A stretch of 53,309 bases of DNA from Lophium mytilinum (lineage: Eukaryota). The notes under the pieces were generated by a model that did not search any database, was not told the origin of the DNA, and worked only from the letters and a program-made list of their open reading frames with translations. Position numbers and translations under genes: made by a program. Positions 4,883 through 53,309 of the stretch are shown here, one piece after another. Where the stretch lies: NCBI GenBank assembly GCA_010093605.1, contig MU004194.1:1712323-1765631 (forward strand), in the 5' to 3' direction. Each line of letters begins with the position of its first letter. Position 1 is the first letter of the stretch.

Positions 4883-5428
4883 CGATCTCAGCAATGGGAA
4901 TGAGAAGTCGAAGGGAGCGAGGGAAGAGAAGGGGCTTAACGATCCGTGCTTTTGGCGTATGCAAGGTTTCATAGGATAATCTAATCTTTGGGGGCGTATC
5001 TCTTTGACATATTGCCGTGATGTTTCCTCTCCACTCAAAATGCTACAACAATCAAGTGAAGGTTTTCTTTGCGTATGGGCACTACATTTCCATCTTCTTG
5101 GCATTGTCGATGCGTACCGAAGAAGCCAGTGTGATATCCAAGCTTAAGCACTAATCCAACGATCATCCCAAAATTTTACGCAGCAAGTCAAATATTCCTT
5201 GAAGGCGACCACATTTGGTTTGTACATACGATGCACCTCTCGGCTCCACCTGCCCTAGCAATTGCGGGGTTCTAGGGCGGGGTGCAGCTTCCCCAGCGAT
5301 GACGCAGGACAAACGACAAGCAAATCACGCCGTGCCAAACTCTTCATTTTCTACATCAATCACTTTGCCCCCCTCAATACAACAACAACCCTACTTCTAC
5401 GAGACTACAAGCTTCAATTGCAATCAGA

Positions 5429-6081
5429 ATGTCCATCCCAACCTCCACCTCTGTCACTGAGTCCGCTGTCATCGAAGCTCCCCTGAGCTCCGTCTGGGTA
5501 TGTCACTCCACCTCAGTCGAACCTCGCAAGTGTCTGACGGAAAGGCGCATTGCTGACGGTGTGAATGGATATAGCATCTCATCAAACTACAAGATTTCTC
5601 CAAGTTCTGGAGCAAGCTGGACAAGAGCGAGTATGTCAAGGGCGCGTCAGACGAGACGGATATCGTGAAGTGGGCGTTCAAGGACGGAACTGTATTGGAG
5701 ATGAAGCAAGAAGAGCACTCGGTATGTTTATCCATCTGCATCATTTCGTTCCGCCTTAGAGACATGAGCTGATGACCGCAGTCCATCGACCACTACATTA
5801 CATACAGCATCATCTCCTCTCAGCCAGCCTTGAGCTATACCTCCGTTGTTAGCACCGTGCGCCTGTACTCTGTCACGTCGGGCAAGCATGAAGGACAGAC
5901 GTTCGTGACGTGGACGGGCAACTTTTCGAGCGATGCTGATGCTGGTGAGTTGCGCTTGCGTTTCTGTCAATACTTTGTTAGTGCTGACCACTCTTTGTAA
6001 TACTCAGGAGTCATCGAAGATGCCAAGTTCAAGCGCCGTGAAGCCCTCGCTGATCTCGCGGCCGCTGCTGGAAAGAAATGA
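5429..6081 (+). CDS. Bet v1-like / START (polyketide cyclase-dehydrase fold) protein, ~150 aa, 4 exons (5429-5497, 5575-5721, 5782-5944, 6008-6081)
   Basis: GT..AG introns with CTGAC/CTGAT branch sites; spliced frame MSIPTSTSVTESAVIEAPLSSVWHLIKLQDFSKFWS...TFVTWTGNFSSDADAGVIEDAKFKRREALADL. Confidence 0.88.
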
Positions 6082-7898
6082 GGAGGAAGAGACCCATACG
6101 ACGGTGCATAAGTTGGGGAGGTTGAGTGAGGGCTGAGGGCTGAGCGATTCAAGATGGGATGGAAAAGCGAAGCGGCTACACCGATGGCTGGTAAATGACT
6201 GTATCATACCATGAAAATTGCGTGCTTTGCAAAGCAAGGGAACAATGTATGTTCCTAAAAATTCAATATAAGTCCCGCGGGAAGGTTTGATGAACGAATG
6301 TGCGAGATACTATTAGCCCGCATTGTGGATAATTGCACGTTTTTCACCACTGTCTGTGATTCTTCCGTGCAGATCAGCCGCTGCCAACTCTTCGCAGACA
6401 TGACGAGTCATTGCATGCCTCTTGATCGATCATTTGTGGGAGAAGAAACATATCGATAGTGAATACAGGGGTATTTATCAATTGACCAATGAATCGGCAT
6501 GTCGCATCGTTAGCGGATTCCATCAGATTGATTCCCGTCCGCCACCTCACCCTCTCCCTTTTTCCACCACTGTCACCTCCAAAAGCTACCAACATGCTGA
6601 CTTCATCCGACTCAGAACTTGCTCTCACTTGATGAGACCACACCTATTCCAGCACCTTTTCAACCGAGGCTTTAACACCCCTAAGATCCACCAGGCTTCC
6701 AACTAGGACTTTATCCTCAAACGCGCTTATCATAGAGACGTATATGTCTTTCTTGAAACAGAACCCCCTGGCCCTGCACGTCTCTAAACGACACCACGAC
6801 GCGTCGATCCGGCTATTGTATGCTCTCAGGGTGATTAAATGCAGCGGGCCGTGCGACAGGCTCGTGCCTACCTGCATTCATCAACAATTCCACCGCATCT
6901 GCATCCTGTTCCACACGTGACTATAGCATCGAAATTCTTCGGGAATTGTGGTATATGAAAGACCCTCCTTGTCGCAGCATACCCAGTCTTTGACGCGTCA
7001 TCTCTTCGCGGCGCCAAAAGTCTACACGGAAAATTATTTTTTCTTGCCCCACTTATTACAGCCTTTCATCAATCTTGCCATACCTGCTTGCAAAATTTTG
7101 AGGCTTGCGTTATCACTAATGTATCTGCCCATTTCGAGACTTGAGAGAAGCTGTTTTGATTGGTAGCAAAGACCGAACGAGTGTTCCGTAGTCGAGCCGC
7201 AATAGGAGGTACCTGCGACGTGCCAACCACACCAGGGTCCGAAGCCTTTCCGAACACCTCATTCTACAGAGATTTGAGACACAGAAGAGAAACGCGTGGA
7301 AAGTCTAATACGACTCATTGAACGACTACGACAATATCACGCAATCATTCATCAGAAACGTGTTCACATTCTCCTCAATCTAGTTCCAGGGATACGTCTA
7401 CGCGGCTTAATACCCCACTAATGTTTCGCCCCTGTGAAACAAACTTGTCGGCTTGAGACAACCCAATCATGGGCCCACTCCATGCAGTGAAACTCTGGCC
7501 TTGATTGCTGACCCACATTTTCCCGCTATACTATGTACGCCTGGGATTGATAGGGTGATTGAAGGAGGCTCCGCGAATGATTGGGGAAGATCGACGTCTT
7601 CTTGCCGCCTATAGCTCCACCACTCCGAACGGCAGGGAAACAAATTGGCCCTATCATCGGTCTACGCATCTACATACGGATGCGCGGGAAAAGCCACCGT
7701 AATCCACAGGCCACGTCTTCTACCGATGGCGATGATGAAGCCATTTTCGCTAATGAGAAAGCAGGCCTAACATATAAAGAAGGATGTGAAGTCAACCGGA
7801 TCTTCTTATTCCTCACAGCAAACATTCTTTCATTCTTTCCTCCTTTCAATCTTTCATCCAGTTATCCAGCGCCGGTTCGCTACTATCATACCATCATC

Positions 7899-9911: not shown

Positions 9912-11875
9912 TCACCCCTCCAAACACTTCCCACCCAGAGCCCCACGCGCCCTCTCCGCTTCCACGTACCTCGGCCACGTATTTGTAAAAACAAGATACT
10001 TGATACTCTCGAACGCGGCATCGAAGATGCCCACCTCGAAGTCCTTGGGTACATGGTCGATTCCCATGCCAGACTCGCTCTTCACGCTGTCGGCGCGGCC
10101 TAGCAACCCGCCAAGCATCAGCGCGTCGTCCTCCCACGGGCACACCACATTCTCACGCTTCGAGTGCTCGGAGATGGTGTCGCACTCGTAGGGGTCGAAG
10201 ACTACGCTTGAGAAGAGGGATTGTAGATGCCGGAAGACTTTGTACTCAATGTTGATGGGAGTCTCGGCGGTGAATGGGTTAATCAGCGTGAAGAAGATTA
10301 GGGAGGCTTCGGTGAACTGCTGGCGGCGTTGTTGAGCGGTGATGGAGCTCGGTCCTGCTTTAGGTTGCTTATCGATCTCTTTGCCGAGCGAGCTGGGAGA
10401 TGGTTGCGTTTGGTGCTGGGGATGCTCGAGACTGCGATCCCACCGTTGACGGAAGTTGCGTACTTCGCGCAGGAATACCATGTTCTCGGCGGTGAATTCT
10501 TTGCGCGCAGCCCAGCTAATGAGGGGCTCGATGTTGTGCTTGATGACATATTCGAGGGCTTGCATACTGCCTTTGTGCTTGAGGGTTGCGGAGGAAGAGG
10601 ATGAGATGTGGGAGGTGTGCGAGGTGAGGGAGGAGGTGCTGGTCCGGCGGGAAGGATTGAGGGCGGACTTGTAGGCGTCCCAGAGGGGGAGGATAAAGGT
10701 GACTTGTTGGATGGTTATCAGACAAGGGAGAAACCTGAGATAAAGCTACGTATTAGTGTTGCTCTTATGGGAGTAGAACATAGAGCTCAGCTTCTTCCGG
10801 AGGCGGTGCAGGGTGGCTTCTAAAGGCATGCGACTTACCATCCTGAAGTAGGGAAGTACTTATTGATGGTCAACATCGCGGGGATCTTTGTGTACGTGAA
10901 GGCGAGCCAGAGCGGTGTTCCAGGAAGACTTAATTGGCGATCAGTACGTACTCCATACACGAATGACTAGTAATCTCACCCTGCAATAATTGCTAATCGA
11001 GTCTGCCACGCCCAGTAGTGGACATCATTGACTTTACGAATCTTCCAAAGCAAATAGGGCCCGAAGATGGTGGTCCAGAACAGCTGTAGAAAAATGGATG
11101 GGACCCTGTTCATGTGTGAGAACCGTGTCGTTCGAGATGGGAAGCGGCCTACCATTCTGCTCCCCTGCGGCAGCTAGTTTGGTCGGCAACGTGACCGAAA
11201 AAGCCATAGGAACGATGGAAACGGCGCGAGCCAAAGTATAGTATAGTAGATGGAATGAACTGACCCGGGCCAGTAAGCACTCATGATATTTCGATCCGAA
11301 TCCGGGTACGTACCGAGATTGCTAGACCAAGAATGATCCCTACATACGTCTTTGCAGCAGCGTCAAGACGTAAGTAGGCCTCCAAGAGACCTTTGGGACT
11401 CCAAATGACTCTTTTCTTGCGAGCCCCCTCGGTGTAGTTACGAGCAAGTCTTGCTTGACTCTCGTAGTACTTGAGAAGCCTTGCATTGGCAGCTGAGACA
11501 TGATAAGCGAGAGTATCGGGAAATCACCAGCGTGCTGGAATACCGACCTTGAAACAAGGCCATGCCGAGCGGTAGGAACACTGACATGATCCAGTACTCG
11601 GCAACGCAGGGCCAGTTCCCATTCTCGGGGTAAGCGAGAAGAACGAGAACGAGGTACACATGGAGCATCGAGACGGAGCCAATGAGGACATTGAAGCCGC
11701 GTATACGAATGGAGTGATTGGACCGATGGCGATGCAGCAAGTATATCTCGACGGCCACGAAGAGGGAGTAGACGATCGCCACCAGGACGTAGAAGATACC
11801 TAGAGCATCGAGGTTGGCTCGGCCGCCGTTGAGCTCTCGAGTAGCGACGGTTTGTCTGAGAATGAGGCTCGCCAT
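9912..11875 (-). CDS. gprK: GprK-type fungal GPCR with C-terminal RGS domain (multi-exon)
   Basis: N-terminal TM segments (DALGIFYVLVAIVYSLF; IRIRG; CVAEYWIMSVFLPLGMALFQ), several GT..AG introns, WFLPCLITIQQVTFILPLWD, and RGS motifs AARKEFTAENMVFL, PINIEYK, IFDAAFESIKYLVFTNTWPRY. Confidence 0.88.
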
Positions 11876-14800
11876 AGTGATAATGATGAAAGGATAGTTG
11901 GATACGATTAAGAGCGGACAGCTGAAGGAACGCTGGAGCTTATATCAAGCTCGATCTAAAGGGCAAGACTCGCAGTCAATGGAGCCGGAGGTACACGAGA
12001 ATTGGAGAAAGCAAAGCTGGAGGTTACATAAGCGAGGGGATGTACCCAGGTACGGACAGAAACGGCGTGTCGAGTAAATTAGACGATGGAGAAGATGCAG
12101 AGATCGGGGGGAAAGGAAGGGAGGGCGACAGCATGTGTTCTTGTCCAGCAGAAGTGCAGCAGCGCACGCGGCAGTAAGGGAGGGTTAAGAGGTCGTGGTC
12201 GGATGGACCCGAGACAATGAAGCGCCGTGGAGCTCGACTGGGCTGCCAGTGCGTTTGGTGCAACATAGGAAGGGAGGGGTGCTCACGAGATGGCGATGCG
12301 GTGGGACAGGAATCGCGGTTGCAACACGCTCGACCACCTGTCCGACGACACTTGCAGCCCTCACGCGGGCGCGCGCAGGGGCAGCTCCATGGCGGACAAG
12401 AGCATGATACCAAGCCGTAGAAGAATAAAACATGATGTATTTGGGGGGTTTTTCGCCGTGTTAGCTTATATGGCAGCGCAGTGTTTGCGCAGTGCAGGGT
12501 GCGGCAGGCAGCGTTTAGGGAGGAGACAGAGAGGCTCTCTTTGGGCGCGCCGCGTGCTCGGGCCGCCCGCATTAGGCCCCGCAGCGTAGCTGTCCCGGCA
12601 TGGCTTGGTTCCTGGCTGCCCCTGGAGCCCTTCACTCCTCGCTGTCCAGCATCCACTCACCACCCACCACCACCACCACTACGCTATGGCGGTATCGAGA
12701 TATCTAGCATCACCCTGCCACGCTGCAGCTGCTGTTGGTACTCATCCGATATGCCTTATGCGCTCACGATAACTCTGCCAGGAACTGCATTGCGGACGCT
12801 GGCTCGTTACTGTTTCTATTCTTGCCCACGATATAGATCTACTTCCTGTCTCATGCCTTCTTCTATAAGTTCCCATTATCCACCTTGAAGCTTGAACCTG
12901 TGTTAGTAGGCCCTGCTGCCCACGACTTTCATGCAGAATCTCCCTCGGCTCGAGTTGTCCTCTGTCCAGTTCCCAGGTTGGACGAAACGCCAAAGCGCAG
13001 GTCATCCAATATAATGCTGAAAGACGTGGTTCCCGGACTTGCCAGTGTATGAGACAGTTGTGAGTAGGCGCTGTAACTCGGTGGCTGCCTCCTCCCGAGT
13101 ACGCCAGACGGGATGCGAGAGCCAGCATCCCCGCCGCAATACATGCACAACCTGCAGAAGTCACAAGTGCGGAGAAGCTGAAGATAGTGCCTCAAACATT
13201 GATTGCAGCGGGAACATGCAAATGCTGACTAGGCCTCAACAAACCACGCTATTTTGACAAAATTGCGGTGAGAAGAGCCAGAATTTTGAACTTCGAACGG
13301 CTCCTTCATGCTGGTAAAGTAGCCAGTACCCAGCATCCTTCTTGTCAGTCATCACAACGACACGCATAGGTTGACCTTTTCACCTACTCGGAAATGAGAG
13401 GACTCGTCGCGAGTAGCCTCAAACATGGGCAAATGCAAATTCAGAAACGATCTTGATGATTCGTTACTCGACTGCGCCTGTCCAAGTGGAGTTTTACAGT
13501 CAAGAGCAGCACCAAAGCGGTAGCGAGAAAGTATGCATACCCTTATGCTCGAATACTCTGACTACTCTACCCTTGTTCCTCGAGCATAGTCTGGGGACAC
13601 GCGTGGCCGCCCGCATTCCATGCCGACCACCCACGACATCCTTCAAAACTAAGTCCACTGAAACTCTCCGGCTTCCGTCTCGCTCACAAGCCCCACTTCA
13701 TCGGCACCGTGCCGAGGGGCGCGCTTAGGCGAGCTGCTTCCCTGAGAGTATGACATGTCCAATCGGATCTTACTATCCCAAGGGCGGCCGATATGGCTTG
13801 TTCACAACCTTGATCTGTTACCCGAAAGTCATCGACAGGTTCCATCGCGATACCTCAGCTGCAGAACTCCATCGGACCTAAAGAACTACGGTATTGCTGA
13901 TTTGTTTGTTACTTGCTCTGCGGCGTTCCTCGCGACGATGAATCTATACATCCGGGAGCCACGCTAAGAAGGCGTGAGTGGTTGATTGCGGGGTCTAAGA
14001 CGACCGTCTATGTTTCTCTTCCATCAGTTTGCTCTTCAGGCGATGATATGCTATCACTAAGACCACGTATAGTCGCAATATCAAAGCATACCGGCACACT
14101 CCCACGATTGCAGTCCGAGATCTCTTCGTCACAATCGTCCTATCACTTCGCACGAGCCGTTTTTGCCCGATCTATGGTTCCGCCATTCAAAGTTCAAGAA
14201 CCTTAAAATAGGACGCTATTTGATCATTTGAACGTTATGACACCGGAGCGCAAGTCTAAAAGCATATCTGCACCTCGATCATCCTCCGCCTCAAAATGTA
14301 GTGACACTGAAATCTTGCTTCCATATCCCCAACCATAAAAGCCTGGGGTGTATCAATCTACTTTAAAGGTTTTGGACGACATGTCAGGCCATTCTGAGCT
14401 GCTAGTTACCTCAACGGGCCACCGCAGACGGCGTGCTCGGCTGTATGTATTTACCGAGTTCTACGAGAACATGAGAGCATAGAACCCCAACCTCGATGAT
14501 TTTGGTTACAGCTCTGCCGACTGGACAGTGCAGAAGATGCAGTCCTACCGTGTTGTCTCTCGTCCCTCCCTTCTCCTGCTGGGATCATAAGGAGGAAAGG
14601 AAGCCTCAGTGAAGAATACTGACGGCATGGACGAGGAGCTTTCCGACGCTACCAACAACGAGCTAGACATCGTCACGAGCATCAACCAAGCTTGTAGAAA
14701 ATGCGGGAGTGTTGCAATTTCAATCTGCTTTGACTTCGATCGCGGGCTAGGACACACAATACATCGCCGATGTTTCCCTGTAGCAGGCCTGCCCATTAGA

Positions 14801-28565: not shown

Positions 28566-28858
28566 GAAGCGTGCTACGTAGAACTCAAGCTGAACGTATC
28601 CAATGCCGGGAAAAGACAAGGATTGGGGGCCACGGAGGAATCCTCGGGCGCTGCTGCTCGCCTAATTAAGACTGCATAGCCACAACTGTGCCGCAACGGG
28701 CAGCAGGTACAATATTAGAGGGTTGCCCACGCCCTCCCATTAGGTTGCTGTAGAGATCCTTTCCAAGTTCTTCGAATTCTCCGCAAAACATACGCGTCTG
28801 GGCAGCCTTCAATCTCGATCTACCTCGCAGTCGACATCGTAGCTAAAACCCACCTCAC

Positions 28859-29491
28859 ATGGCTTTTCCCAACATCGCATTCGGCCTCCGACAGGCATCC
28901 CTCGCTGTCCAAGCTCAGCTCCCGTACCAAACGCACCCCATTTACCAGCTCCGCCGTGCCAGCATCTGCGTCGCAATCATCGGCTGCACCCTCACCCTCT
29001 TAACATCCACATCCGACGACTATCACAGCAACGAGCAGCCTATTTACGGCTCTGCCCTCATCCTACTCTTTATCTCCTTCCTCTTTTGCTGCTACGACTT
29101 GGCGACCTACGCTATCGCAAAGATAACTCCGGCGCCCGTCCAGCAGCCTTCACTTCTCCCTTCGACCTGTACCAAAGCACAGCACTCCAACGACGGGGGT
29201 GATGACGATGATCCGGAACCTCAATGGCCGCGAAAGAGCTTCCTAATTGCTGATGGCATTCTCCCGGTCCTGCTCCATGCAATGTTTTGGTTCATTATGG
29301 CGTCCGAGTCGTACTACTCTACAGCGACTGGGGCGTCGGCGGGTTTAGCGAGCTTGGTCGCAAGTGCACTGCACGGAATAGCCTTTTACTACGGATACAC
29401 GGCGTGGAAACATATTATAGAGTTAGAAGCGACCGCTTATAGAAAATATAGGTTTCTTAACTTAGACCTTAAGAATAAAGAAATAGTTTAA
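28859..29491 (+). CDS. Hypothetical multi-pass membrane protein, 3' end apparently altered by RIP leakage
   Basis: About four hydrophobic segments; GC-rich coding sequence turns TA-rich from ~29410 while staying in frame. Confidence 0.7.
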   Translation: MAFPNIAFGLRQASLAVQAQLPYQTHPIYQLRRASICVAIIGCTLTLLTSTSDDYHSNEQPIYGSALILLFISFLFCCYDLATYAIAKITPAPVQQPSLLPSTCTKAQHSNDGGDDDDPEPQWPRKSFLIADGILPVLLHAMFWFIMASESYYSTATGASAGLASLVASALHGIAFYYGYTAWKHIIELEATAYRKYRFLNLDLKNKEIV

Positions 29492-37500: not shown

Positions 37501-40382
37501 AATTATAAGTAACTTCTTATTATATATTTTATAGTTTATTTCTTATAGTATTATCTTTATAAAGAAGAAGGTAATAGGGTATAATAGCCTATCTTCTTCT
37601 ATCTATAATATAACGCTAGTAATAATATAGTCTAATGCGTCTATCTTAATATAGACCTTTTTACTATATTAGAAATAAGCTAGTACTAAGTATAGATATA
37701 AAAGCTTCTTTTAGAATTTAAAATACTTTCTTATAGTTATCTATCTAGGTAAATCTTAGCTAGGGTGTTTCTTTCTTATTCTTCTTATTACTATTAGACG
37801 TGCGCATTATTAAAGTAAGTAGGTAAATAATATAAGAGAAGCTATAAATAAAATATTAATAGAAATTAGCTAGGCTAAGAAAAGCTTATATATCTTTAAT
37901 ATATATAGATATCTACTAGCTTATAATAGCTTCTACCTTTTTAAAATCTATATAAATGCCTTCTAGTATAATAATTAGGCCTAGATATTTTACCTTCTTA
38001 ATACTAAATTCTAATTTCTTAATATTAGCTTGCAGGCTGTACTTTTATAACTACTAGAGCACCTTTTTAATATGCTTCTTATATTAAGCCTTATCTATAG
38101 AGTATATTAGAATATTATCTAAGTATATAGAGTAGAAATTATTAAGAAAGTTATAAAGTATATTATTAATATAGCTTTAGAAGGTTACTAGCCCCCCTAT
38201 AAGACTAAATAGAAGAACCTTAGACTTAAATATACTATAGTATATAGTAAACCCTATAAAATACTTATCTTCTAGTCTTATTTAGATTCTATTAAATGCG
38301 CTAATAATATCTAGTTTAGTAAACTACTTAGCGTAGCTAAGTTAGTTTATAGTTTCTTATATTAATAGAATAGAATACTATAATTTAATAGTAAGAGCGT
38401 TAATAGTATAGTAGTCTATATAAAAATATACTCTACCGCCCGGCTTATAGATAAGAAGAATTAGTAAAGATATATTAGATTAAGCTAGTTTAATAAAGCT
38501 CTTAGTAAGGTTATTATCTATCTATTTCTTTACTATCTAGAGTTTACTCTTTAATATTAGGTATAGTTATACTTATAGTAGTTTCTCTTCTACTCTAAAG
38601 AGTAGATAGATCTTATAGTCTATACCGGGTTAATTAGATAGAGGCGTGTTAGCGTTAGTTTAATTAAATATATTAGTAAACTAATAATATTTCTTAGAAA
38701 GCTTATATAGAATATCCTTCTTAGTTATATAGGTCTTAGCCTGCAGAAATTTATTAATATCTATTATAGTAATTGCGTTAACGCGTTTAGGTATATTAGT
38801 ACCTTATTATATAATAAGAACCTAGATACTATTATTATATATTAATATATTATAATTAGCGTTAATTTCTTATAGTATATAGAGCAGTAGCTTCTCTATA
38901 AGCTAGCCCTTTTATATATAGATATAAGTTAGCCTAGCTAAAATATAGTATATATTAGCCGCGTTATTTTCTATTATAGAAAAAGAAGTAGTTTAAGGGT
39001 AATAAAACGGGCTCTATACTAATATACTTAAGCTATTTCTTATTTAGTAACGCCTATAGTATAGGTAGAAGAAATTAATATAGTATTCTTACTAATTAAT
39101 TATAAGGTTATATCTTTTAAGCTATTTATAGCCTAGAATAATTAATACTAGGCTAAGGTCTATAATAAAAGCTTTAAACTATTCTGTATACCTATTTAGA
39201 CTAAAATAGATAAGTATAGTATAAGTAATCTTCTTTATAATAGCTTCTCTATCTATAAGTTTAAGGGTATAGGCTTTTATTAGGGGGATAAGAGAAAGGT
39301 TATTAGTATGCGCGTAAGTAGTATTAATAAAAATATATATAGCTCTACTATTAAGTAGAGAAAAAGTAGGTATTATAGATAGAGGCTTACTATTTTTATA
39401 TATCTAGATGTCTTCTATAAGCTTTAAATAGTATTTATTCTAGAGAGGAATATCTATCTAAATTAAAGCCTTACTAATCTTAAGAGTATCTATAGATTCT
39501 AGCCTAAGTTTATCTAGCTTATTTATTATATCTACTATTTCTTTATATATTAACTATATAACTAGTACTAAGTTAAAACTACTTACTATAGGCCCTAAGT
39601 TGCGGCTATAATCTAGGGCTAGGTATTTCCCTATCTATATTCTTACTAAGTAGCTAAGTTTATAGTATAAATAGCTAGAGCGCTAGATTAATATAGAGGT
39701 AAGGCGGGGCGCTAAGCTATAAGCTAAGCTATAGAGTAATTAGGGTTATTCTTCTTATAACTAGATATATAATAGTAGTAGTAGGTACTATTAGCTCTTA
39801 GTATAGTATACTTAGTATTAGTTATTATACCCGGAGGCTTCTAGCTATTTAGAATATTAACTAGGGCCTATAGTTAATCTATATATAGGTTAGTATTATT
39901 AATACTAGTAGCTATAATAGTAAGAGGTTAGTTAGACTAAAAGGCGTAGGTATATAGGCCGCGTTATAACTAGTAACCTCTATAGTTATTATAGCCTTCT
40001 TAGTATTCTCTATATCTACCGCGCTAGTTTCTACCTTACTAGATTATTAGGTTAACGCGGTAGACTATATAGGTATAGATTAATATATTATTATTACACT
40101 AATAGTAGTATATAGCTACTACTATATTTATAGTTCTAGTAAATAGCTTTTCTATTATAGCGCCCTTATTAATCTAGATAAGTTCTTACTTCTAAATTAT
40201 AGTTATTATATTATTATTCTTATTCTACTTAGGTATTATATTAGCTTACTTAGTAATATAGCTCTAGAAATTATCTATTAATTTATTTTATTTCTAGAAT
40301 ATTATATAGATCTTATTCTAGGCTATATTCTCTATATTAGAGTTAAGAAATTAATTATCTATAAAGGCCTAGGCGTCTACTA
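34528..40382 (-). mobile_element. RIP-degenerate chromovirus (Ty3/Gypsy) element B: 3' LTR 34528-34731, PPT, chromodomain, integrase, RNase H, RT, protease and partial gag (continues at ~48250-48700)
   Basis: Poly-C tract (minus-strand PPT) next to 34731; RT motif reads YLDNILIYS (YLDD) at ~38100-38127; protease LLNSRA (LLDSGA) at ~39340-39358; Gypsy domain order. Confidence 0.85.
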
Positions 40383-40584
40383 TATTATAGACTATAAGAG
40401 GCAAGGCATAGAGCACGGTATTAAATAAGAAATAGGGTATATTTACAAAGATAAAGTCGCGTAGAGATAGAGGTTCTACGCGGCGCAGGCTAAATATAGG
40501 CTAGAGGTGCAAAACCGCGCTAGCGCACGGGCTTATATAATGTAGCCGAGGGCACGTAATATATATAGAGCTAGATCCGTTACA
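40383..40584 (-). repeat. 3' LTR of element C (202 bp)
   Basis: Colinear direct repeat of 48043-48244, differing by transitions; ends ...CCGTTACA. Confidence 0.95.
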
Positions 40585-43500
40585 CTACCCCCCTAAAATA
40601 AAGAAGAAAGGCTATAGAAAGAAAAGGCTATATAGTAAGACTATAGACTAAGGAAATAAATACTAAGGAAATATAGTTATAAGTAATTAGATAAAAATTG
40701 CGTAAGAAAGGGGCGTGCTTACAGCGTTATAAAGGTAGGCGTTCCTATTAAGATAGCTCGGCTAGCTAGGTACGGCGGAGAATCTGGGTCTTAGTTAAGT
40801 TGTAAATAATATTATAATATTACTGCGTAAGGTATATAAATATAGTTAGTAAATACGCGCGTTATAGATTATAAGCGCGCGCTTATTAAGAACCTGTTAC
40901 TAATTAGGGTTGGGCCTAAAGTCTAGATAAGGGCCGTTGGCGTTAGAGTAATAGTAATGGAACTTACTAATAAGCTTATTAGTGCTGTACTTACTAAAGT
41001 TAGTCTAGTTCTACTATATCTATAGCTTAGTATAACCTTTATACTAGGCGCGGTATTATAGTTTATAACTATAGCGGCCGTGTTATAACTAGCGGCTATC
41101 TATAATAAAATTAATTAGCTATATATTAACGCGATCTTATTTATTATTAGTTATTCTATAGGGGTTAACGACCTATATAGGCGGGGGTAGTAGTAGATTC
41201 TATTCTAGTATAGGCCTAGGTTTAAATAGGTAGAGAAGGTAAAAATAGAAGATATTATGCGTATAATATTCTTTAAGTAATATTTCTATAAAGTTAAGTT
41301 AGAAGGCGTAACCCTAATTAATAATCTTAGTAATGCGGAAAGGACTAAGGTTCTTATAATTAAGTAAGTAATTAGGGCGTTGGGTCTTAATATTGCGCGC
41401 GTTGAGCTAGACTAGGTTATCTACTTTAAAACGTAGTAGTAGTTAGTAATATTAATTAGTAAAGTAAGCCTATACTACTATAGCCTATATAATAGTATTA
41501 TAATATTCTTTAAGTATATTCTTTATCTAGTTAGCATATTAATCCGCAAGCAGTTATTTATTACGCGCAGCGGCGCGGCCGGTAACTAGTATAGCTGGCT
41601 TAATGCCTAACTATAGGTGGAAGCCGCGGGTAGTAAAGAAGGGAGTAAAGCCTATTAAGGCTAATTTATAGTTATTAACTATAAATTTACTAAGGGGAAA
41701 ATAGTTAACCTAGTTATCTTGCTAGTATAAAATAAATTAACGTAGGTAGGCTTTTATAACGGAGTTAGTATTTTTAGTCTAGCTATTAGTTTTAGAATAG
41801 AAAGCGGTGGAAAACTTAGGTTTAACGCCGAGTTATTTATATAGGCGGCGCTATATAGCGGACATAAATTACACGCTATAATTACTAATAATTACTTTAG
41901 GTAAGCTATATAGTTAAAATACTTTACGGATAAAAGCGTCTATAATATCCTTAATAGTGTCGCCTATTATAGAAATATAGTAGCGTTTCTTAGATAGTTA
42001 GTTAACTATAATAAGAATAAGTATATATGTTTATCTATTTTATGTATAAGGAGGCAGATCTATAATAAAATCTATAGTAATCTTAGTCTATTACTTATCT
42101 AGTATATTAAGGCTACAGAGTAATTCTTGCTATTTATCTTAGAAAGCTTTTACTTAGCGGTAGCCGTAATAGGCACCTATATAGCGCTTAATATCTTTAT
42201 AGAAGTTAGGCTAGAAGTAGTAGCGTTAAAGTAGCTTATAGAAGCCGTGCTTACTAGAATAGCTAGTAATAGAAGTATTATAAGATAGGCTAAGTAGCTT
42301 AGTATATAGCTAGTTGTGGGCTAGTATATATAGACAGTTATAATAGTATAGTTAGTTATCCCGTATTTTAAAGCTATTAATATTAAGGTTGCTAATAAGG
42401 TTATAGAGGGCTTTTAGAATAGAGCAGGTACCGCTCTAGATAATATTTATAAGCTTATATAGTGTGGGGTTATATAGAGGTTAGCGTATGTAGGCCTTAT
42501 TAATAAGGTATTATAGATTATTATTATTATAGTTAATATTATTATTATTATTACCTTAAACTAGCTATACTGCGATAACCTTATTAGCGGCTATAATATC
42601 CTTATTAGCTAATAGAGCTGCAAAAATCTTATTAGCGTTATTAGGTAGCGCCGCAATAGCCTTATTAGCGCTTCTATTACTATCGCTATTATTACTAGCA
42701 CGGTTATAGCTGCGCAGCCTAGCAGGGGCGAGTTAAAGGGGTAAGAGAAAGAGAGAATATATTTAGAGAGAGGATTATAGTAAGGTTATTAGAAGAGGCT
42801 TAAGTAGTTTAGTGCACGGGTAAAGTACGTTAAACGGCCTATAGGCGCCGGGCTTACTTAGCTTAGTATTATTAAGTAAGAGTAATTTACTATTTAGTAT
42901 AACTTCCGGTCTAAGGTTATAAGATTTAAGTACGGTTTAATATTAAAATTAATTCCGTGGATTATTAGGCTCGTGAGGTAGGTCTTATAAACGCTGTGTA
43001 AGGCTATTAGGCTTACCTTCTAGTACGCTAGGGCGGTATATAATCTTAAAGTTAAATCTAGTAAGAAACTTAGCCTAGTATACTTAGCGGCGGTTAAGTT
43101 TCTTAGTAGTTATAAACTATTTTAGATTGCGGTAATCTATAAGAATGTTAGTAGGGTCTATAGAATTAGCACTTATAAGCTTAGGTCTCTATTCTTTAAA
43201 GGCCTTAACTATAGTAAGGAGTTCTTTATTATAGATCTTATAGTTATACTTAGCTAGTAATATTTTAGAAGAGAAGAAGGCAACTAGGTATAGAAGTCTA
43301 TTAGGCCTAATTTAGAATATAACGCCGGCTATTATATAATTAGATGCGTCTATTTCTAGAAAGACCTTTTTACTATATTAGAAATGCATAAGAACGGGTG
43401 CCTCTATAAACGCTTTCTTAAGCGCGCGGAAAGCCTTCTTATAGGCCTATATCTATATAAAGTAAGGTTTCTTTTATTCTTCTTAGAGCTTTATTATATT

Positions 43501-46500
43501 AGTAAGGGGTTTAATAATACGTAAGAAACTATAGATAAATTGCTAGTAGAAATTAGATAGCCTAATAAAGGCTTAGACGTCCTTAATGCAGGTTAGAGTA
43601 TTCTATTTAAGAATGGCGGTAACTTTCTCTAGATTTATGCAAATTCCTTTAGTGGAAATAATTAGTTCTAAGTAGGTAACTTCTTTTTAATTAAACGCGC
43701 ACTTAGATAAGTTAACGTGTAAGCCTGCTGCCTCTAAGCGCTTAAGGATAGCGGCTACGTGGGCCTTATAATCTTCTTTTAAACCTTCTATATAAATAAG
43801 GATATTATCTAGGTATGCTATGCAGAATTTATTAAGGAAATTATATAGTATTTAATTAATAAAGGATTAAAACGTCCCGGGTCCTTCTATAACGCTAAAG
43901 GGCATAATAAGGGACTTATATTTACTATAGCGTGTTATAAAAGCTATCTTATACTTATAGCCTAGAGCTATATAGACTTTATTAAAAGCGGCGATAATAT
44001 TAAGCTTAGTAAACTACTTAGCTTTTCTAAGATAGTAAAGTGTCTCTTATATAAGGGGTATAGAATAATAAGTTTTAATAGTAAGGGCGTTAACGGCTCT
44101 ATAGTTAATATAGAACTAGATACCGCCCCCTAGCTTATATATAAGTAGAATAGGTAAGAAGACTTATAACTATAATTATCTAATATAGCCCTTAGCTAGA
44201 TTATTATTAAGCTATTTCTTAATAATATAAAGTTTATTAGTAGATATAGAGTATAGGCGGGCTTTAGGTAACTTACTTAGGTTAATGCTATTAACCTAGT
44301 TAATCTTGTAGTCTATACCTAGTTAGTGTAGTAGTAAACTATTAGTATTAACTTAGTTAAAGATGCGGATGTATTTATAAAGGCTAGGGGGGAGTTAAGT
44401 AAATATTTCCTTCTTAGTATAATGTTACTTAACTTCTATAAACTTCTTAATGTCGCGTATAGCTAGTTTATAGAGGTAGATAGGTATATTACTTATCTAT
44501 ATAGCTATAACCTGGAGGTAATTTAAATAGATTAGAAAATCCTTATAGGTATTAGCAAGGTCGGCTGCAACATATTAAGGTAAGTTATTAAGCTAGTCTC
44601 CTTTAATAGCGGCTATGCGGTATATAGTAAGGTAGGCTATAACGCCTATATATTGCGTAGAGTCTATAGAATTAAATAGCTATATAATATTATAATTATA
44701 CATAAAATTAGGTAGTGCTAAGCCTTTTATATAGGTACTAGCGCTATTAGTATTATTTATATAGTAATAGCGGTGCAGATAGAAAATCCTATTATATTTC
44801 TCTTTTATAAAGTTAATCTTGCCTATAACCTAGTTAATAGCTAGGTTATAGCGCTAGAACTAGCGGAGGCCTAAGATAATATTATAGTTGCCGAGGTTAG
44901 TAATATAGGCCTATTCGCGGCTCTAATAGCCTTAAATAGCGATAGGGATAAGAGCTTTATAGGTAATCTTTTTAGTAACGGTAGAGCCGTTAGCTAATTT
45001 AAGTATACATAATTTAGGTAAGGGGCAGATTAGAAAGTTTATTTAGTGCGTATAAGTAGTATCTATAAATTTATTAGTTGCTCTAGTATTGCTGTAAAGG
45101 TATTCTTTAATTATATCTAGTAGTTATCCTTTATAGAAACGCTAGACTTTAGCTAGAACTAGAAAGCTATAGAGGGTCTTTTTATTAGTTTAACCCGCTT
45201 AAACATTATTACTAAGAGAGGCAGCTAAAATAACTAACCTTCTTAACTATAACTATATAGATTCTTTTTTATTTTTATAGTATTAGACTACTTAAGTAAT
45301 AATACGCCCTAGATCGCGACTATAATCTAGGACTAAGCATTTCCTAAGTAGCTCTAGTATTAAGATTGGCTATATCCTATAAACGGTCCTCCTGCGCCTC
45401 TAGATAAGATAAAAGTATTAATACCTACTTTAGTAGAAGCTAGAGTAAATATAGTAGGGGCTATATATATAGAAGGAGCGTATATAGATAGGGGCGCGTA
45501 TATAGATAGGGCGTATATAGATAGAGCTAGGGTTATAATATTATTAGAATATATAGTAACGCCTTATAGAGCGAGTATAGAGCGCTCTATAGGATACTAC
45601 TAGTTAGTAGATATATAACTAATAAGTTGGCAGTAGAAGTAGTAATTCTTACTTATAAGTTAACGCTTTTAGTTATCTATAAGACGGCCTAGGGCTAGGC
45701 GCTACTAGTTGGCAGAAATATTAATAGGAAAGTTTATAACTTTATGTATCTATAGTGCAGACATCTAGTAATTCTAGCTAGGCGCGTTTATTATATTCTA
45801 GGTTTATCCTTAGCTATAGTTATTCTAGTAGCCTTAGTTTTAAGTATTCTAAGTAACCTAGTTTTAAGTGGCTTAAAACTAGCCTATTAGGGTCTAGTTA
45901 GAAGGGTTCTAGGGCTTATTACCGCGGTAGCCTCCGTAGTAGCTATTATTATTAGTCTAGTTATTAGGCTATTAGCTATACTATCTAGGCTAGTTATTAT
46001 ATTATTAGTGTAGCTGTATATAATCTACTATAGCTTAATTAAGAAGCTAGTCGCGGCATGCGTTAATAACTTTATATCCCTTCTTATAATATTTTCCTAG
46101 GACGCCCGCAGGCTTAGTAATACCGGGGCGGATCTTTACCTTAAGCGCGGTAACATCCTAATAGTGTTCTTAATTTAGTAGTTATACTATAAGCGCTTAG
46201 TATTTTATATAGAATATATTAAGATTATTATTACCCTATATTAGTTAGTTAAGTTGCTAGAAAGTAATAGCTTTAGAGTTGTATAGTAGGTTCTTAATAT
46301 TAAGGCGCTTAATAGCGTTATTAAGAGTGTAAAAAGGCTAATAGTCTATTATCCGCGCTATATAGTTGCTAAGAGATATACTAGTAAGATATATACCTAG
46401 AAAGTAGAGGCGGAAGCCTTTATTATATTAGTAGAGGCAGCTACCGTAGGTAAACTTACTAAGGACCTAGTAACGCTAGATAATATACTTAGATTTATTA

Positions 46501-48042
46501 CTATTATACTTAGGGGGGTATAGTATAGTTTTATCCTTATTCTAGTTAGCGCGTGTTCTATAGTTAATATTATACGGGGGTAGTAGGGCGCTATTAGGTT
46601 CTATAAAAGATATAGGTGGTGTATATAGTTACGGGCTATAAATTAAATTATAGTTGCGGAAGTCCTTATTATTATTACTATTACTAGAATTAGAGGGGGG
46701 TCTACTACCGCCTCTAGTGGGGCGTATATAGCTCTATTAACTATAAAGGGGCTTATTAGGGCGGCGGGGTAGTAAGGGTTTATATTACTAGCGGTTGCGG
46801 CCGCGTAAGTAATCTCGGCTAGGTAGAATAAAAGGGCGATATTCTAGCTTAGCACCTTCTTTAGCTATAATGTAGGCTATAAGCTTATATTAATAGCTTA
46901 TAGTAGCGGTAAGCTGTATAGTAATCTTAGGGGGAGAGCTATTAGCGCGGGCTATAGGGCCGCAGATAGTAGTGTTCTAGAGACTATTAATATAAACTTT
47001 AGTAGTAGTAAGAGCTTTTTTAACATTCTTAATATAGGCTTTAAGCTTAGTAATATACTTAGCTAAAGCTTTACTATAGGCCTTAAGCTTAGTAATACGC
47101 TTTACTACTATTACATTAATAGTATCTATCTAGGCGGTAAACGCTGCTATATTAGTAATATATTTATATATAATTTTATCTTTAGCGTTCCTAGCATAGA
47201 TAGCGTTATCTCTATCTTAGATAGTATTGTCGCGGTTATTATAGGCCTAGTCCCGGTCCTCTTTAGCTTTAATAATGTTAGATTTATATTAGAATTTTAT
47301 ATTAGTAATAGCCTTTTCTAGGCGCTTAATATTGTTCTTTACGGCTAGAAGGTAATTATTTTATTACTAGATTATATTATAAGCTTGCTTATTAAGCTTA
47401 GCCTATACTTCTATAGAAGCCTTATTATACTCTAGTTAGTTACATAGTTAACGGATCTTAGCTTTATATAAACGGGTTAATTTAAAAGCTATTACCTTAT
47501 CTTTAGTAATAAAGTCTATAAAGGCTTTAGCATCCGGGACCTTATATATAATAGGGGCTTTATTAGCGTCTTATTTATTAATAGCGGAATAATTAATAAG
47601 TTTATTTACTTTAAGGATAGAAGTCTTAAAGGCGCCGGGCATCTTAGGGTAGTAGACGTAGCTACTAGCGTTAGGTTAATTAGGGTGTTCCTAAAGTTTA
47701 TCTTTAAGGAAAGCATTGTTATTAGTAAGGTTATCTTTAGTATTATCTTAATTATAGTCGCGTGCATGCTATAAGTTTCTAGTAATTATCTAGGAGTCTC
47801 CGGCTACAGTTTAGAAGTCTTAGTTCTAGAAGTCTTAAGTTAAGGCCTAGAAGTCTAAGGGTATAAGGATAGTGCGCTATAAGAGGAGGTCTTAGAGCTT
47901 CTATATACTAGTTATGCTAAGAGGGTTAGAGTTATTAGCTATAGTATTAATGGCCGCGCGGGGTAGAGTATTATAGTTTACTAGCAGCGGATTATAGTTT
48001 AAGGACTTAGTAGAATAGTAGCTAGGTAGAGTAACTTTATAG

Positions 48043-48244
48043 TGTTATAGACTATAAAAGGTAAGGCATAGAGCATAGTATTAAATAAGGAATAGGGTGT
48101 ATTTATAAAGATAAAGTCGCGTAGAGATAGAGGTTCTACGCGGCGCAGGCTAAATATAGGCTAGAGGTGCGAAACCGCGCTAGCGCATGGGCTTACGTAA
48201 CGTAGCCGAGGGCACGTAATATATGCGGAGCTAGATCCGTTACA
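48043..48244 (-). repeat. 5' LTR of element C (202 bp)
   Basis: TGTTATAG...CCGTTACA with TG..CA termini; matches 40383-40584. Confidence 0.95.
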
Positions 48245-49028
48245 TACTAGAGTAATAAGCTTATTTTTTAATATCTACTTAAATATTATATATTATTCTA
48301 CTACTAAGTTAAGCTTAATTTAGAAGATTATATATCTAAGCTATAGATAGTTATTTTAAAACTTATAGCTACTACTAGAAATTTTAAGTATAATATAAGC
48401 CTTCTAGCTAGAATACTATATTTTATTACTAGTAAATTCTAGGGCGTTTATAATATAGTTGCGTATATATAATCTTAAATATAAGTATAAATAGTAGTAT
48501 TTTAAGTAGTATTAATTATAACTATAACTATAGTAGTCTTTATCTAAGTTAGATAAACTAGTAGAGCTATTAGAGCTACTAGAGTTATTCTTACTATATA
48601 GCTTACTTTAATAAGACTTATACTTTTTAGACTACTACTTATACTTATATAGATTCTTATTATTATTATAGTTACTATTACTAAATAGATTATAGGGGCT
48701 AGAGGGTTAGAGTTATATAGGGAGAAGTAAGTTTAATATAGAGAAAATTAATCTTTAAGAATTGCATGCAGTATAACCTTATACCGCCGCATTTAACTAC
48801 TATAATATAAAATAGAGTATGCATGCAAAGAAGAATACTTAGAATATAATATAATAGCGTTCTATTAACTTTAATTTAATTTATAAGCTATAGTAGTAGC
48901 TTAAGGTAGATATAAAGAGGCTGCAGGGTGCATAGATATAGAATAGAAATTACTAAAAGGGTTTAGTATAAGAATAGCCTTGCAATTAAAAATTAGTATA
49001 ACTACTACTATATATAACTACTATAATA

Positions 49029-49163
49029 TAGTATAGAAGAAATATATANNNNNNNNNNNNNNNNNNNNNNNNNNNNNNNNNNNNNNNNNNNNNNNNNNNN
49101 NNNNNNNNNNNNNNNNNNNNNNNNNNNNNNNNNNNNNNNNNNNNNNNNNNNNNNNNNNNNNNN
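49029..49163. other. Assembly gap (N run)
   Basis: Run of N characters. Confidence 1.
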
Positions 49164-51621: not shown

Positions 51622-53309
51622 TTAAACCTTTATCTTACTATAAATATAGTCTAGATTTAATTCTAGTATTAAATCTAAGCCTCTAATATAAGAAGTATCT
51701 TCTTTAATAGTAAAGATAGTTCTAGTAAAGTCTTCTACTAAGTAGTAAGTATCTTTATTACCTTCTAATAACTTAAAGCTATATAAATCTCTACCTTCTA
51801 GATTTCTAGCTAAATAAGTAGCTAATAGAATAATATCTTTATATATACATATAATAGGCTCTATTCTATTAGCTAGGCATACTTCTAAAGGTAGAAAGCA
51901 TTCTAAGCAGGTATTAGTATTATTTAATAAGCCTAAGTTAGATATTTCTTCTTTAATAGGTAGAATAGCTTTAAATATTAGTTTACTTTTAGAATTAGGG
52001 CAGTTATATATACTATGCCACTTATAATTACTATCTCTATTATTAAAGTAGTAAAAGCAGATTTCTTTTAAAGTATCTAGCCGTTCTAATATACTAATAA
52101 TATAGCTATTATCTTCTTCTTTTTCTAGTTCTTCTAAGAATAAAAGCTTAGAACTAGATTTAGATTTAGTAGTAATATTCTCTTCTTCTTCTCTTTCTAT
52201 ATCTTCTAAGAAGCCAAGCTTTTTAGTAGGGCTAGTTAAAGTAGTACTAGTATTCTTTTTAGCTTTAGTATTAATAGATAGCTTACTAGAATAGGTATTA
52301 GGTACTCTACTAGTATTAGATAAGCTAGGCTCTTTATCTTTTCTAATAATACTACTAGGATAAGTATTAGGTACTATACTACTACTAGGTAATATAGTAT
52401 CTCTATTTCTTTTAGTAATACTAGAAGGATAAGTATTAGGTACTCTAGTAGGACTAGGGCTATTACTAGGTAATAAAAGTAGATTATTACTAGAAGTAGA
52501 AGGAGAGTTATTAGAACTTATTTCTATATACTCTTTATCTTTACTTTTAAGTATATACCTAGTACTTCTACTAATAGATATATTATTACTAGAAGAAGAA
52601 TCTTTTCTAGCTTTACTTTTAGATTTACTTTTCTTTTTTAAGCTAGTAGGTATATTAATACTAGTATTACTAGAAGAACTATCTTCTATTTCTATACTTT
52701 TAAGCTTAGCTTTCTTAGTTATAGTAGAACTAGTAGAATTATTTATACTAGATTTCTGCCGTCTATGCTTTCTACTAGAGCTACTAGCTATAGAATTAGT
52801 ATTTTTATCTACTAGCTTAATAGGAGCTAAACTAGAAATAAAAGTAATATTAAAAGGGTTACCTTCTAGCTCTATTAGATTAAAGTAAGTTAAAAATCTA
52901 ATACTAGCTAAAAAGAACTCTTCTTCTAAAGGCTTAGTAGTATTTCTAGCTAAGCTAAAAGGGCGGCCGTAGTTTCTATTACTAGTAATAGTATTTCTAT
53001 TAGCTTGCATATCTTCTATAGTAATAGTATCTTTAAAAGTATCTTTATTAATAGTTTTAGTACCTATTTTATACTTTAAAATATAATCTATTAACTACCT
53101 ATAGTTACTAATATTAATTCCTACTTTAAAGAAGTTCTTAGTTTCTTTAACTAGTAGATTAGAGATAGAACTAGATTTAATAATAGTATTATTATACTCT
53201 AGTAAATAAGGACTAATAGTAGTAATTCCTAAGGCTTTAATAGATAGAAAGTTATAAAAAGGTAGTACTACTAGTAGATATAGCTTAAGTATATTACTTA
53301 GCTTAGGCC
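51622..53309 (-). CDS. AT-rich ORF running off the window (single TAG at 53095-53097): tyrosine-recombinase-like C-terminal motifs, Ser-rich linker and Cys-rich domain, resembling fungal telomere-linked helicase proteins without the helicase core
   Basis: The frame reads ...YLLVVLPF...GINISNYR*LI...EDMQANRNTITSNRNYGR...FFLASIRFLTYF, later ICFYYF...WHSIYNCP...CLECFLPLEVC...CIYKDII. Confidence 0.6.

Follow-up and report, generated by a model that had tools for sequence, protein, structure and literature searches.

The DNA considered here, a 53,309-nucleotide stretch of the Lophium mytilinum genome (GenBank assembly GCA_010093605.1, contig MU004194.1, positions 1,712,323 to 1,765,631) that will be referred to as the window, comprises a GC-normal part (1-29.4 kb; GC content ~0.51) and an AT-rich part (29.5-53.3 kb; GC content 0.21-0.32). 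At the far end of the latter, the minus strand contains an open reading frame (ORF) that runs from position 53307 to position 51622. Its 562 codons, across which no frameshifts were found, consist of 70 codons that run off the end of the window, a TAG stop codon, another 490 codons and a terminal TAA. The first-pass annotation of the window, made from the DNA letters, had described some 560 codons with a single stop, and this was indeed the case, the one internal TAG being at positions 53095-53097. On the basis of the sequence comparisons presented below, the region is assigned to a gene that descends from the telomere-linked helicase (TLH) family, of which it makes up the final 562 codons; by the same comparisons, some 700 N-terminal codons of this gene must lie beyond the end of the window.

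The region bears the repeat-induced point mutation (RIP) signature. The usual cut-offs for the RIP indices are 0.89 for TpA/ApT and 1.03 for (CpA+TpG)/(ApC+GpT). Positions 51622-53309, with a GC content of 0.26, lay above the first and below the second, presenting values of 2.02 and 0.09, respectively. The neighboring AT-rich DNA yielded values of 1.76-1.83 and 0.08-0.26, the region being as RIP-like as its surroundings; the first-pass annotation had described it as no less AT-rich than the neighboring retroelements. In the GC-normal DNA (positions 1-29000), the same ratios were 0.69 and 1.24, with no RIP-type bias.

The open run of 490 codons far exceeds what was obtained in 1000 first-order Markov simulations of the region, where the mean was 46 codons and the maximum 91, as well as the longest open run elsewhere in the AT-rich block (97 codons in the other 22 kb). 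Beyond the ORF and a frame lying antisense to it (52433-52888), no stop-to-stop frame of at least 110 codons was found in the AT-rich DNA, with the only two further long frames listed being at the GC-normal edge of the block (28843-29491). The antisense frame is probably a by-product of codon composition, as codons of the A-N-T type read A-N-T on both strands. The possibility that the internal stop codon belongs to an intron (AG|GTAGTT) was also considered and ruled out, since in-frame homology resumes directly past the stop.

A Gypsy-type long terminal repeat (LTR) retroelement in the same AT-rich block served as an internal control. In the stretch encoding its reverse transcriptase (RT) and RNase H, 18 stops were counted in 351 codons, as compared to the single internal stop of the ORF (Fisher p = 3e-7); the neighboring retroelement is thus full of stops, as had been noted. 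Residual CA and TG dinucleotides were spread evenly over the three codon phases of the retroelement (8/9/9), whereas those of the ORF were confined almost entirely to one (11/1/1; Fisher p = 0.002). The RT/RNase H stretch has the look of unselected RIP acting on a normal gene, and the ORF departs from it.

Only 13 CpA or TpG dinucleotides are left in the ORF. Eleven of these occupy codon positions 1-2 (six in Cys, two in His, two in Gln and one in Trp codons), another is found in the sole ATG and the last is at the codon junction CTT|GGC. Accordingly, 12 of the 13 lie inside Cys, His, Gln, Trp or Met codons, as the first-pass annotation had proposed, and the places it had named were confirmed, namely, the Cys codons at 51847-52059, TGG-CAT at 52015-52020, CAT/CAG at 52756-52767 and ATG-CAA at 53005-53010. 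No CpA exists outside Gln and His codons, and the CTT|GGC junction offers the only TpG outside Cys, Trp and Met codons. Across the 562 codons, there is one Trp, one Met and two Gln. When the order of the codons was shuffled (n = 2000), 22.5 +/- 3.2 C|A junctions (minimum 9) and 48.6 +/- 4.4 T|G junctions (minimum 32) were obtained, as compared to the observed zero and one, with none of the 2000 shuffles coming near. When synonymous codons were shuffled instead (n = 2000), the mean number of CA and TG junctions was 35.6 (minimum 24), again as compared to one. TpA, for its part, was distributed over codon positions 1-2, 2-3 and 3-1 as 29/94/233, and an A or G came after TA in only 2 of 29 in-frame instances but in 200 of 327 out-of-frame ones (Fisher p = 6e-9). 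The pattern of residual targets is, therefore, well above chance.

Pfam returned nothing above noise for the 490- and 561-residue reads of the ORF, a word-indexed protein search at near lengths gave no match and the ESM Atlas gave no usable match. A phmmer search of 1.84 billion representatives yielded three matches, of which P0001 (333 aa; 1.9e-42) and P0003 (7.9e-9) were real; the third was rejected as low-complexity sequence. Pfam likewise found nothing above noise in P0001 and P0003, or in P0004 and P0005. The cluster containing P0001 led to L001, a 14-kb metagenome contig of RIP-like DNA that holds two copies in tandem (4425-7835 and 10478-14067). The first is helicase-less, as is the window gene, and is preceded by a same-frame 659-codon ORF with an OrsD domain (two C2H2 motifs; 2.5e-6), while the second runs into a DEAD-box helicase. 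The first copy is a single frame of 1137 codons with three stops and no frameshift; one of these stops falls on the invariant Arg of the motif SPLRGEE and another at the same alignment column as the stop of the window gene, a coincidence that is not surprising given how few convertible codons are left.

When the second copy in L001 served as query, 33 long relatives (1140-1895 residues) containing OrsD, DEAD and Helicase_C domains were retrieved, some of which are named RecQ-type helicases by the Joint Genome Institute (JGI). The helicase part of the family matches RECQ5, BLM, RECQ1 and WRN at ~1e-38. Members are laid out as two N-terminal C2H2 motifs (OrsD), a TLH domain of ~250 residues, a RecQ-type helicase and a C-terminal Cys/His domain. 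In two reports, TLH genes are described as subtelomeric and present in multiple copies, and as encoding C2H2 motifs, a TLH domain and RecQ motifs (10.1101/2024.02.27.582403; 10.1101/2022.03.07.483234).

Residues 1-146 of the ORF correspond to residues 703-844 of one such relative, P0007, i.e., the end of the TLH domain, and residues ~405-555 correspond to P0007 residues 1375-1524, past the helicase. These two blocks flank the DEAD (969-1119) and Helicase_C (1166-1267) domains of P0007. Alignment of residues 1-146 to the C-terminal part of the TLH domain was obtained with 33 of the 33 long relatives (blastp/tblastn E 1e-8 to 1e-31), membership being judged on the second half of the domain, as the first half lies beyond the window end. 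The ORF thus shares the end of the TLH domain and the C-terminal domain with these helicase-bearing proteins, and L001 adds both a C2H2/OrsD part, which in the window gene would fall past position 53309, and a RecQ-type helicase. Unlike these, the window gene is without a RecQ core, in place of which it presents a 258-residue linker; tblastn with 37 family proteins detected no trace of a helicase across the window. In P0001 and in the first copy of L001, too, the helicase core is replaced by a Ser/Thr/Asn/Lys-rich linker containing tandem repeats, and helicase-less relatives at 43% identity share the layout of the window gene. The family is a known one, in which the gene represents a new variant without a helicase.

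In the C-terminal domain, the family conserves two sets of ligand-like residues, namely, C-x2-C-x(10-13)-H-x4-C and C-x2-C-x6-C-x(9-11)-C. Across a family alignment of this domain (A3), C18 is invariant and C21, H32, C37, C68, C71, C78 and C88 are present in at least 90% of the sequences. The AlphaFold2 (AF2) model of the domain was predicted with a mean local distance difference test score (pLDDT) of 85.4 and a template modeling score (pTM) of 0.83. Comparison of this model with solved structures gave no match (best Foldseek E 2.7; best VIA Z 2.9 among 48,161 chains), which is no proof of a new fold. It is on these conserved residues that most of the surviving RIP targets are found. The in-frame TG and CA codons of the C-terminal domain are those of C417, H431, C436, C467, C470, C477 and C487, together with that of one variable Trp, and Gln101 is part of a conserved IED-x-Q-A-N motif. 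In total, 10 of the 12 in-codon CpA/TpG sites are on columns conserved in the family. The earlier proposal that RIP targets were purged at synonymous and tolerant sites, with selection retaining essential residues, is supported, in that all synonymous junction sites and nearly all tolerated sites have been converted and the survivors are almost only at conserved residues. The features of the gene and of the control retroelement are collected in Table 1.

Table 1. Features of the TLH-derived gene and of the neighboring retroelement, in window coordinates
Feature	Position	Strand	Basis or remark
Upstream 70 codons, same frame	53098..53309	-	Inside the TLH domain; align with ~residues 700-770 of 33 relatives
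Arg70	53098-53100	-	On the family-invariant Arg of the NPYR motif, R214 of alignment A2
Sole in-frame stop, TAG, codon 71	53095..53097 (plus-strand cta)	-	Column is His, Gln or Lys in relatives
End of TLH domain and motif after it, residues 72-146	52870..53094	-	Contains IEDMQANR..Y113; N247 and Y257 columns invariant
Residual ATG-CAA	53005-53010	-	Within residues 72-146
Arg104	52996-52998	-	His/Arg column
Tyr113 codon	52969-52971	-	Y257 column
Ser/Thr/Asn/Lys-rich linker, 258 residues	52096..52869	-	Occupies the position of the RecQ helicase core of relatives
K-H-x-R-x-x-S-S motif, conserved, in linker; His181 and Gln184	52756-52767	-	Family consensus KHxRxxSS
Linker tandem repeats	52112-52249, 52284-52458, 52521-52751	-	Repeat comparison within the window
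C-terminal Cys/His domain, residues 405-561	51625..52095	-	Family alignment and AF2 model
Ligand-like residues, first set	C417 52057-59, Y420 52048-50 (Cys in X1, X4), H431 52015-17, C436 52000-02	-	Family alignment
Ligand-like residues, second set	C467 51907-09, C470 51898-900, C477 51877-79, C487 51847-49	-	Family alignment
Terminal stop, TAA	51622..51624	-	Close to the ends of several relatives (P0001 a few residues longer; P0012 aligned to 1493/1501)
Antisense open frame, 151 codons	52433..52888	+	Opposite the linker
RIP-degraded LTR retroelement, Gypsy-type	40385..48244	-	LTR-like repeats and RT/RNase H; internal control ~8 kb away
LTR-like repeats, 93% identical	40385-40584 and 48045-48244	-	Repeat comparison
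RT/RNase H	43054-44106	-	Pfam RVT_1 1e-16, RT_RNaseH_2 2.5e-20

Within the linker, positions 52112-52751 contain three pairs of imperfect tandem repeats of ~69-83 bp, with the motif VPNTYPSS, for example, appearing three times; public contigs are interrupted at these repeats. No Pfam match was obtained on the plus strand of 40001-48501, the region of the retroelement. An assembly gap (115 N, 49049-49163) lies between the retroelement and the flank of the ORF.

The sequence of the window gene was next compared to public sequencing runs, namely, X1, a DNA run from a very close strain with single contigs across the region, X4, an air-metagenome run 85-95% alike, and X3, whose contigs cover only positions 51847 and 51854. 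Four differences from X1 were listed. At 53097, X1 reads CAG (Gln71) and X4 reads CAA where the window has TAG, in support of the first-pass suggestion that this stop arose from CAG. At 52049, both X1 and X4 present TGC (Cys420), restoring a C-x2-C pair, where the window has TAC (Tyr). At 51847, TGC|A in X1 is TGT|A in the window, a silent change, and the difference at 51854 is a transversion. As all four X1 states are common to X4, and those at 51847 and 51854 also to X3, the window states are derived. Three of the four derived changes are CpA/TpG-to-TpA, and these struck 3 of only 16 such sites. In the comparison with X1 and X4, these three were the only RIP-type differences and all were on the window side, with the other 33 listed differences not being RIP-type. 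RIP-type mutation is still acting on the window copy and is harmful where it acts. None of the eight ligand positions is lost in either X1 or X4. Read depth in X1 was ~460-580 over the ORF and 559 over the flank, values that are not a measure of copy number. X10, a run presumed to be of RNA, gave no contig in this region, an outcome without bearing on expression.

The differences from X4 also bear on selection. In the two domains, 13 silent and 7 replacing differences were counted, with three of the latter being the lesions of the window itself, while in the linker, one silent and 14 replacing differences were found; the count covers 36 listed differences of ~195 from X4, drawn from several metagenome contigs that possibly represent more than one organism. 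Relative to a neutral silent fraction of 0.21-0.31, the domains present an excess of silent differences (p 3e-5 to 2e-3), and the domains differ from the linker (p = 6e-4). This bias favors selection, without being decisive.

To be poor in RIP-sensitive codons is not a trait of the window gene alone. Sixteen of the 33 long relatives, termed hardened here, are uninterrupted proteins of 1140-1869 residues with 4-19 Gln, 0-3 Trp and 1-3 Met each, as compared to a combined 45-137 Gln and Trp in eight normal relatives. Recurring as it does in 16 of the 33, this make-up, nearly devoid of Gln, Trp, Met and of His outside conserved columns, is a property of the lineage. Conserved columns account for 96 of 128 His and 185 of 228 Cys residues in the hardened proteins. 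Saturating RIP on a normal relative would add as many stops as it has Gln and Trp codons. As CpA-directed RIP can turn Gln codons only into stops, the loss of Gln requires other mutations together with selection; columns that are Gln in normal members are Gln (0.34), Leu (0.20) or Glu (0.09) in hardened members.

Taken together, these results are best explained, with a probability put at roughly 0.6, by a TLH-derived gene that has been under purifying selection while repeated RIP removed its dispensable targets, and whose allele, as present in this assembly, has just suffered damage. Residing in a RIP-affected AT-rich block, the lineage would have been exposed to RIP many times (CpA to TpA, with TpG to TpA on the other strand). 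At some point in the lineage, the helicase core would have been lost, with the low-complexity linker in its place. With purifying selection acting on the protein, all silent or tolerable targets would have been converted, while Gln and Trp codons, the only sources of stops by CpA/TpG-directed mutation, would have been replaced over time through non-RIP mutations and selection. Targets would then be left only at needed residues, i.e., the eight zinc-ligand-like Cys and His residues and a few motif residues. RIP would be left with little to mutate, including only four stop-convertible codons, and the frame would stay open beside a stop-riddled retroelement. The low target content would presumably slow further damage to a protein still at work. 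Such protection would be incomplete, with 3 of the 16 remaining sites having just been hit to give the stop at codon 71 and the Cys420-to-Tyr replacement.

Several observations weigh against this reading. The RecQ-type helicase core (DEAD/DEAH and Helicase_C) is absent from the gene, and two of the three RIP-type changes are damaging, with one introducing the stop at codon 71 and the other replacing a conserved putative zinc ligand, such that the copy in the sequenced strain may be a pseudogene. Nor is the openness of the whole frame certified in X1, contigs of which differ further in the repeat-bearing linker, and the count of silent differences draws on the possibly mixed sample described above. 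Not every surviving target marks an essential residue, given that Trp430 and Met100 are on variable columns, and that Gln, which matters most for stops, occupies a conserved column in the hardened relatives in no more than 46 of 157 instances. For the intact hardened relatives, moreover, it is from amino-acid make-up alone that the RIP reading is drawn. Finally, P0001 is without the second Cys cluster and the first copy of L001 carries three stops, one on an invariant Arg, raising the prospect that the helicase-less branch, as judged from these sequences, may be decaying in general.

Much of this evidence would also suit a relic that persists by inertia. Here, the gene would have been without function since the loss of the helicase, with its frame being open only because its ancestor already had almost no CpA/TpG and hardly any codons for Gln or Trp; RIP, as the chief source of mutation here, could not break such a frame, and ordinary mutation would not yet have had the time to do so. 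The missing helicase core, the stop and Cys-to-Tyr change of the window copy, the three stops in the 1137 codons of the first L001 copy, the second Cys cluster lost from P0001 and a linker that evolves freely (1 silent vs. 14 replacing differences) are all as such a relic would present. By contrast, differences in the domains are mostly silent (13 vs. 7, or 13 vs. 4 without the lesions of the window itself), and the eight ligand positions in X1 and X4 have all been retained. Helicase-less copies that are 43% identical overall align at 54-56% identity over the domain blocks, with linkers that are unalignable, meaning that constraint after loss of the helicase is needed. No frameshift, moreover, has accumulated in the 562 codons of the window gene or the 1137 codons of the first L001 copy. 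A functionless relic is thus considered unlikely, albeit the most serious competitor of selection combined with repeated RIP.

The predicted structure of the TLH domain yielded a side finding. An AlphaFold model of this domain, based on L001:12130-13080 and a 34-sequence alignment, was obtained with a pLDDT of 72.5, rising to ~90 in core residues 60-225. Among the first 46 Foldseek matches listed, every one was a recombinase or a type IB topoisomerase (best E 1.4e-3). VIA gave Z scores of 10.9 for XerH (138 residues aligned at a root-mean-square deviation of 2.7 A), 10.4 for XerA and 10.2 for both XerD and Cre, a Z of at least 8 being reached by 40 chains. Invariant in the 34 sequences are R91, K128, R214, N247 and Y257, together with a His or Arg at position 248, nine residues before the Tyr. 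The order Arg-Lys-Arg-Tyr is the recombinase catalytic order, with the His-Tyr stretch (residues 230-266) being modeled at a pLDDT below 50. The window contains only the second half of the domain (52969-53309) and, of these residues, only R70, R104 and Y113. The predicted fold of the TLH domain is that of the tyrosine-recombinase/type IB topoisomerase catalytic domain, an assignment that concerns the fold only, with catalytic chemistry being putative. While the model shares this fold with XerH, XerA, XerD and Cre, there is no match at the sequence level. Pfam detected no integrase domain in the family proteins, and the A2 profile searched against Protein Data Bank (PDB) sequences returned only helicases and no recombinase among the best 60 matches. 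In the literature searched, no paper linking a telomere-linked helicase with a tyrosine recombinase was found.

In its strict form, the first-pass proposal would have the gene be an active multicopy mobile element, with the loss of RIP targets being an adaptation that lets new copies survive RIP and multiply in this genome. The family is multicopy elsewhere, according to earlier reports (PMC4522978; 10.1101/2022.03.07.483234), L001 contains two tandem copies, the hardened make-up is widespread in the family, and the modeled tyrosine-recombinase fold, with its invariant R, K, R and Y, might provide a means of moving. Nonetheless, the 53-kb window holds no second copy of the gene, no terminal repeats were found around it, and its flank is unlike L001, comparison of the two giving only low-complexity noise and no shared ends. 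The window copy was, moreover, hit by RIP-type changes, mobility of TLH genes is unsupported by any result here, and adaptation cannot be told apart from the end state of mutation and selection on these data. An active element of this sort is accordingly held to be improbable. Concerning location, the sole match to telomere repeats in the window was a 12-mer with a single mismatch, and one or more matches of this kind arose in 33 of 100 shuffles. A search of viral_contigs and genome_contigs for further DNA of relatives, made with a closer alignment (A4), yielded none. As an alternative to the gene having been duplicated at the time of mutation, RIP may have spilled over from neighboring repeats.

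That RIP was not involved, with the composition stemming instead from AT bias of a general kind or from a foreign source (an organelle, a plasmid or an AT-rich donor) and the codon pattern being ordinary for AT-rich sequence, is highly improbable, since a GC content of 0.26 and an Asn-, Lys- and Ile-rich protein would suit any AT-rich genome but the odds ratios of CpA and TpG are 0.12 and 0.05, with those of ApC and GpT near 0.9 and that of TpA 1.54, the flanking 29 kb is GC-normal and without such bias, no C|A junction is seen where 22.5 are expected from the codons of the gene itself, Met and Trp are nearly absent, and differences from close relatives at the remaining CpA/TpG sites are all C-to-T or G-to-A.

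The first-pass annotation had gone further in describing the gene as evading genome defense. The uninterrupted hardened relatives (16 of 33) speak for this description, yet it is too strong, given the three RIP-type hits on the window side, of which two are damaging. Repeated RIP combined with purifying selection would explain the pattern, making an evasion strategy unneeded. As such, 'RIP-hardened under selection, still vulnerable at a few kept sites' should be a better fit than 'RIP evasion'.

What is seen here is a known effect in an extreme form that extends across the lineage. According to a survey of AT-rich genome regions, proteins encoded there are depleted of Arg, Trp and Gln and enriched in Phe, Tyr, Lys, Ile and Asn, and use more TpA codons (PMC4943192); RIP is, moreover, described as being able to shorten ORFs via Gln, Trp and Arg codons (PMC4943192; PMC3105345). 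The genes of AT isochores, as seen in Leptosphaeria maculans and in the OcculterCut survey, present the same general effect on amino acids and codons (PMC4943192; PMC3105345). The case in the window is, however, far more extreme (one Trp, one Met and two Gln in 562 codons), involves a repeat-type gene family rather than short effector genes, and is matched by the same end state in relatives as long as 1869 residues (16 of 33). In Zymoseptoria, 13 subtelomeric multicopy RecQ copies, seven of full length, are reported, with a coding sequence of 34.7% GC (PMC4522978). Long ORFs of very low GC content are thus common to both systems, with the low GC content of the Zymoseptoria copies being given without a RIP-based reading in the accessible part of that report (PMC4522978). 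Neurospora crassa and Trichoderma reesei, in both of which RIP is strong, are reported to lack TLH genes (PMC4812632). No RIP-based account of TLH genes or of 'RIP-resistant' coding was found in the openly accessible literature searched.

Cryptons and Starship captains use tyrosine recombinases; recombinases are not known to occur fused to a RecQ helicase. It is tentatively proposed, as a possibility more doubtful than likely, that TLH genes may be, rather than ordinary host genes, tyrosine-recombinase-driven elements in which a recombinase-fold TLH domain is joined to a RecQ helicase, with RIP-hard coding sequence in RIP-competent fungi, and with the window containing a helicase-less offshoot that has just been hit at three of its last weak points. 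If true, the persistence of a repeated family at the ends of chromosomes, in genomes that destroy other repeats, would be accounted for, while the recombinase fold, if confirmed, would offer a first mechanistic handle on the spread of TLH genes among chromosome ends.

RIP is thought to make the survival of repeated genes nearly impossible in many ascomycetes. Together with its relatives, the gene described here illustrates the form that a repeat-type coding sequence takes when it has long coexisted with RIP, with the frame surviving because stop-convertible codons have been removed. The RIP targets that remain would mark residues that the protein needs, offering a straightforward means of recognizing functional residues in genes worn by RIP. 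For those annotating genomes, the finding is a warning that a long ORF in an AT-rich block may be genuine, and for the TLH family, it provides a testable reason for persistence in genomes of the Dothideomycete type.

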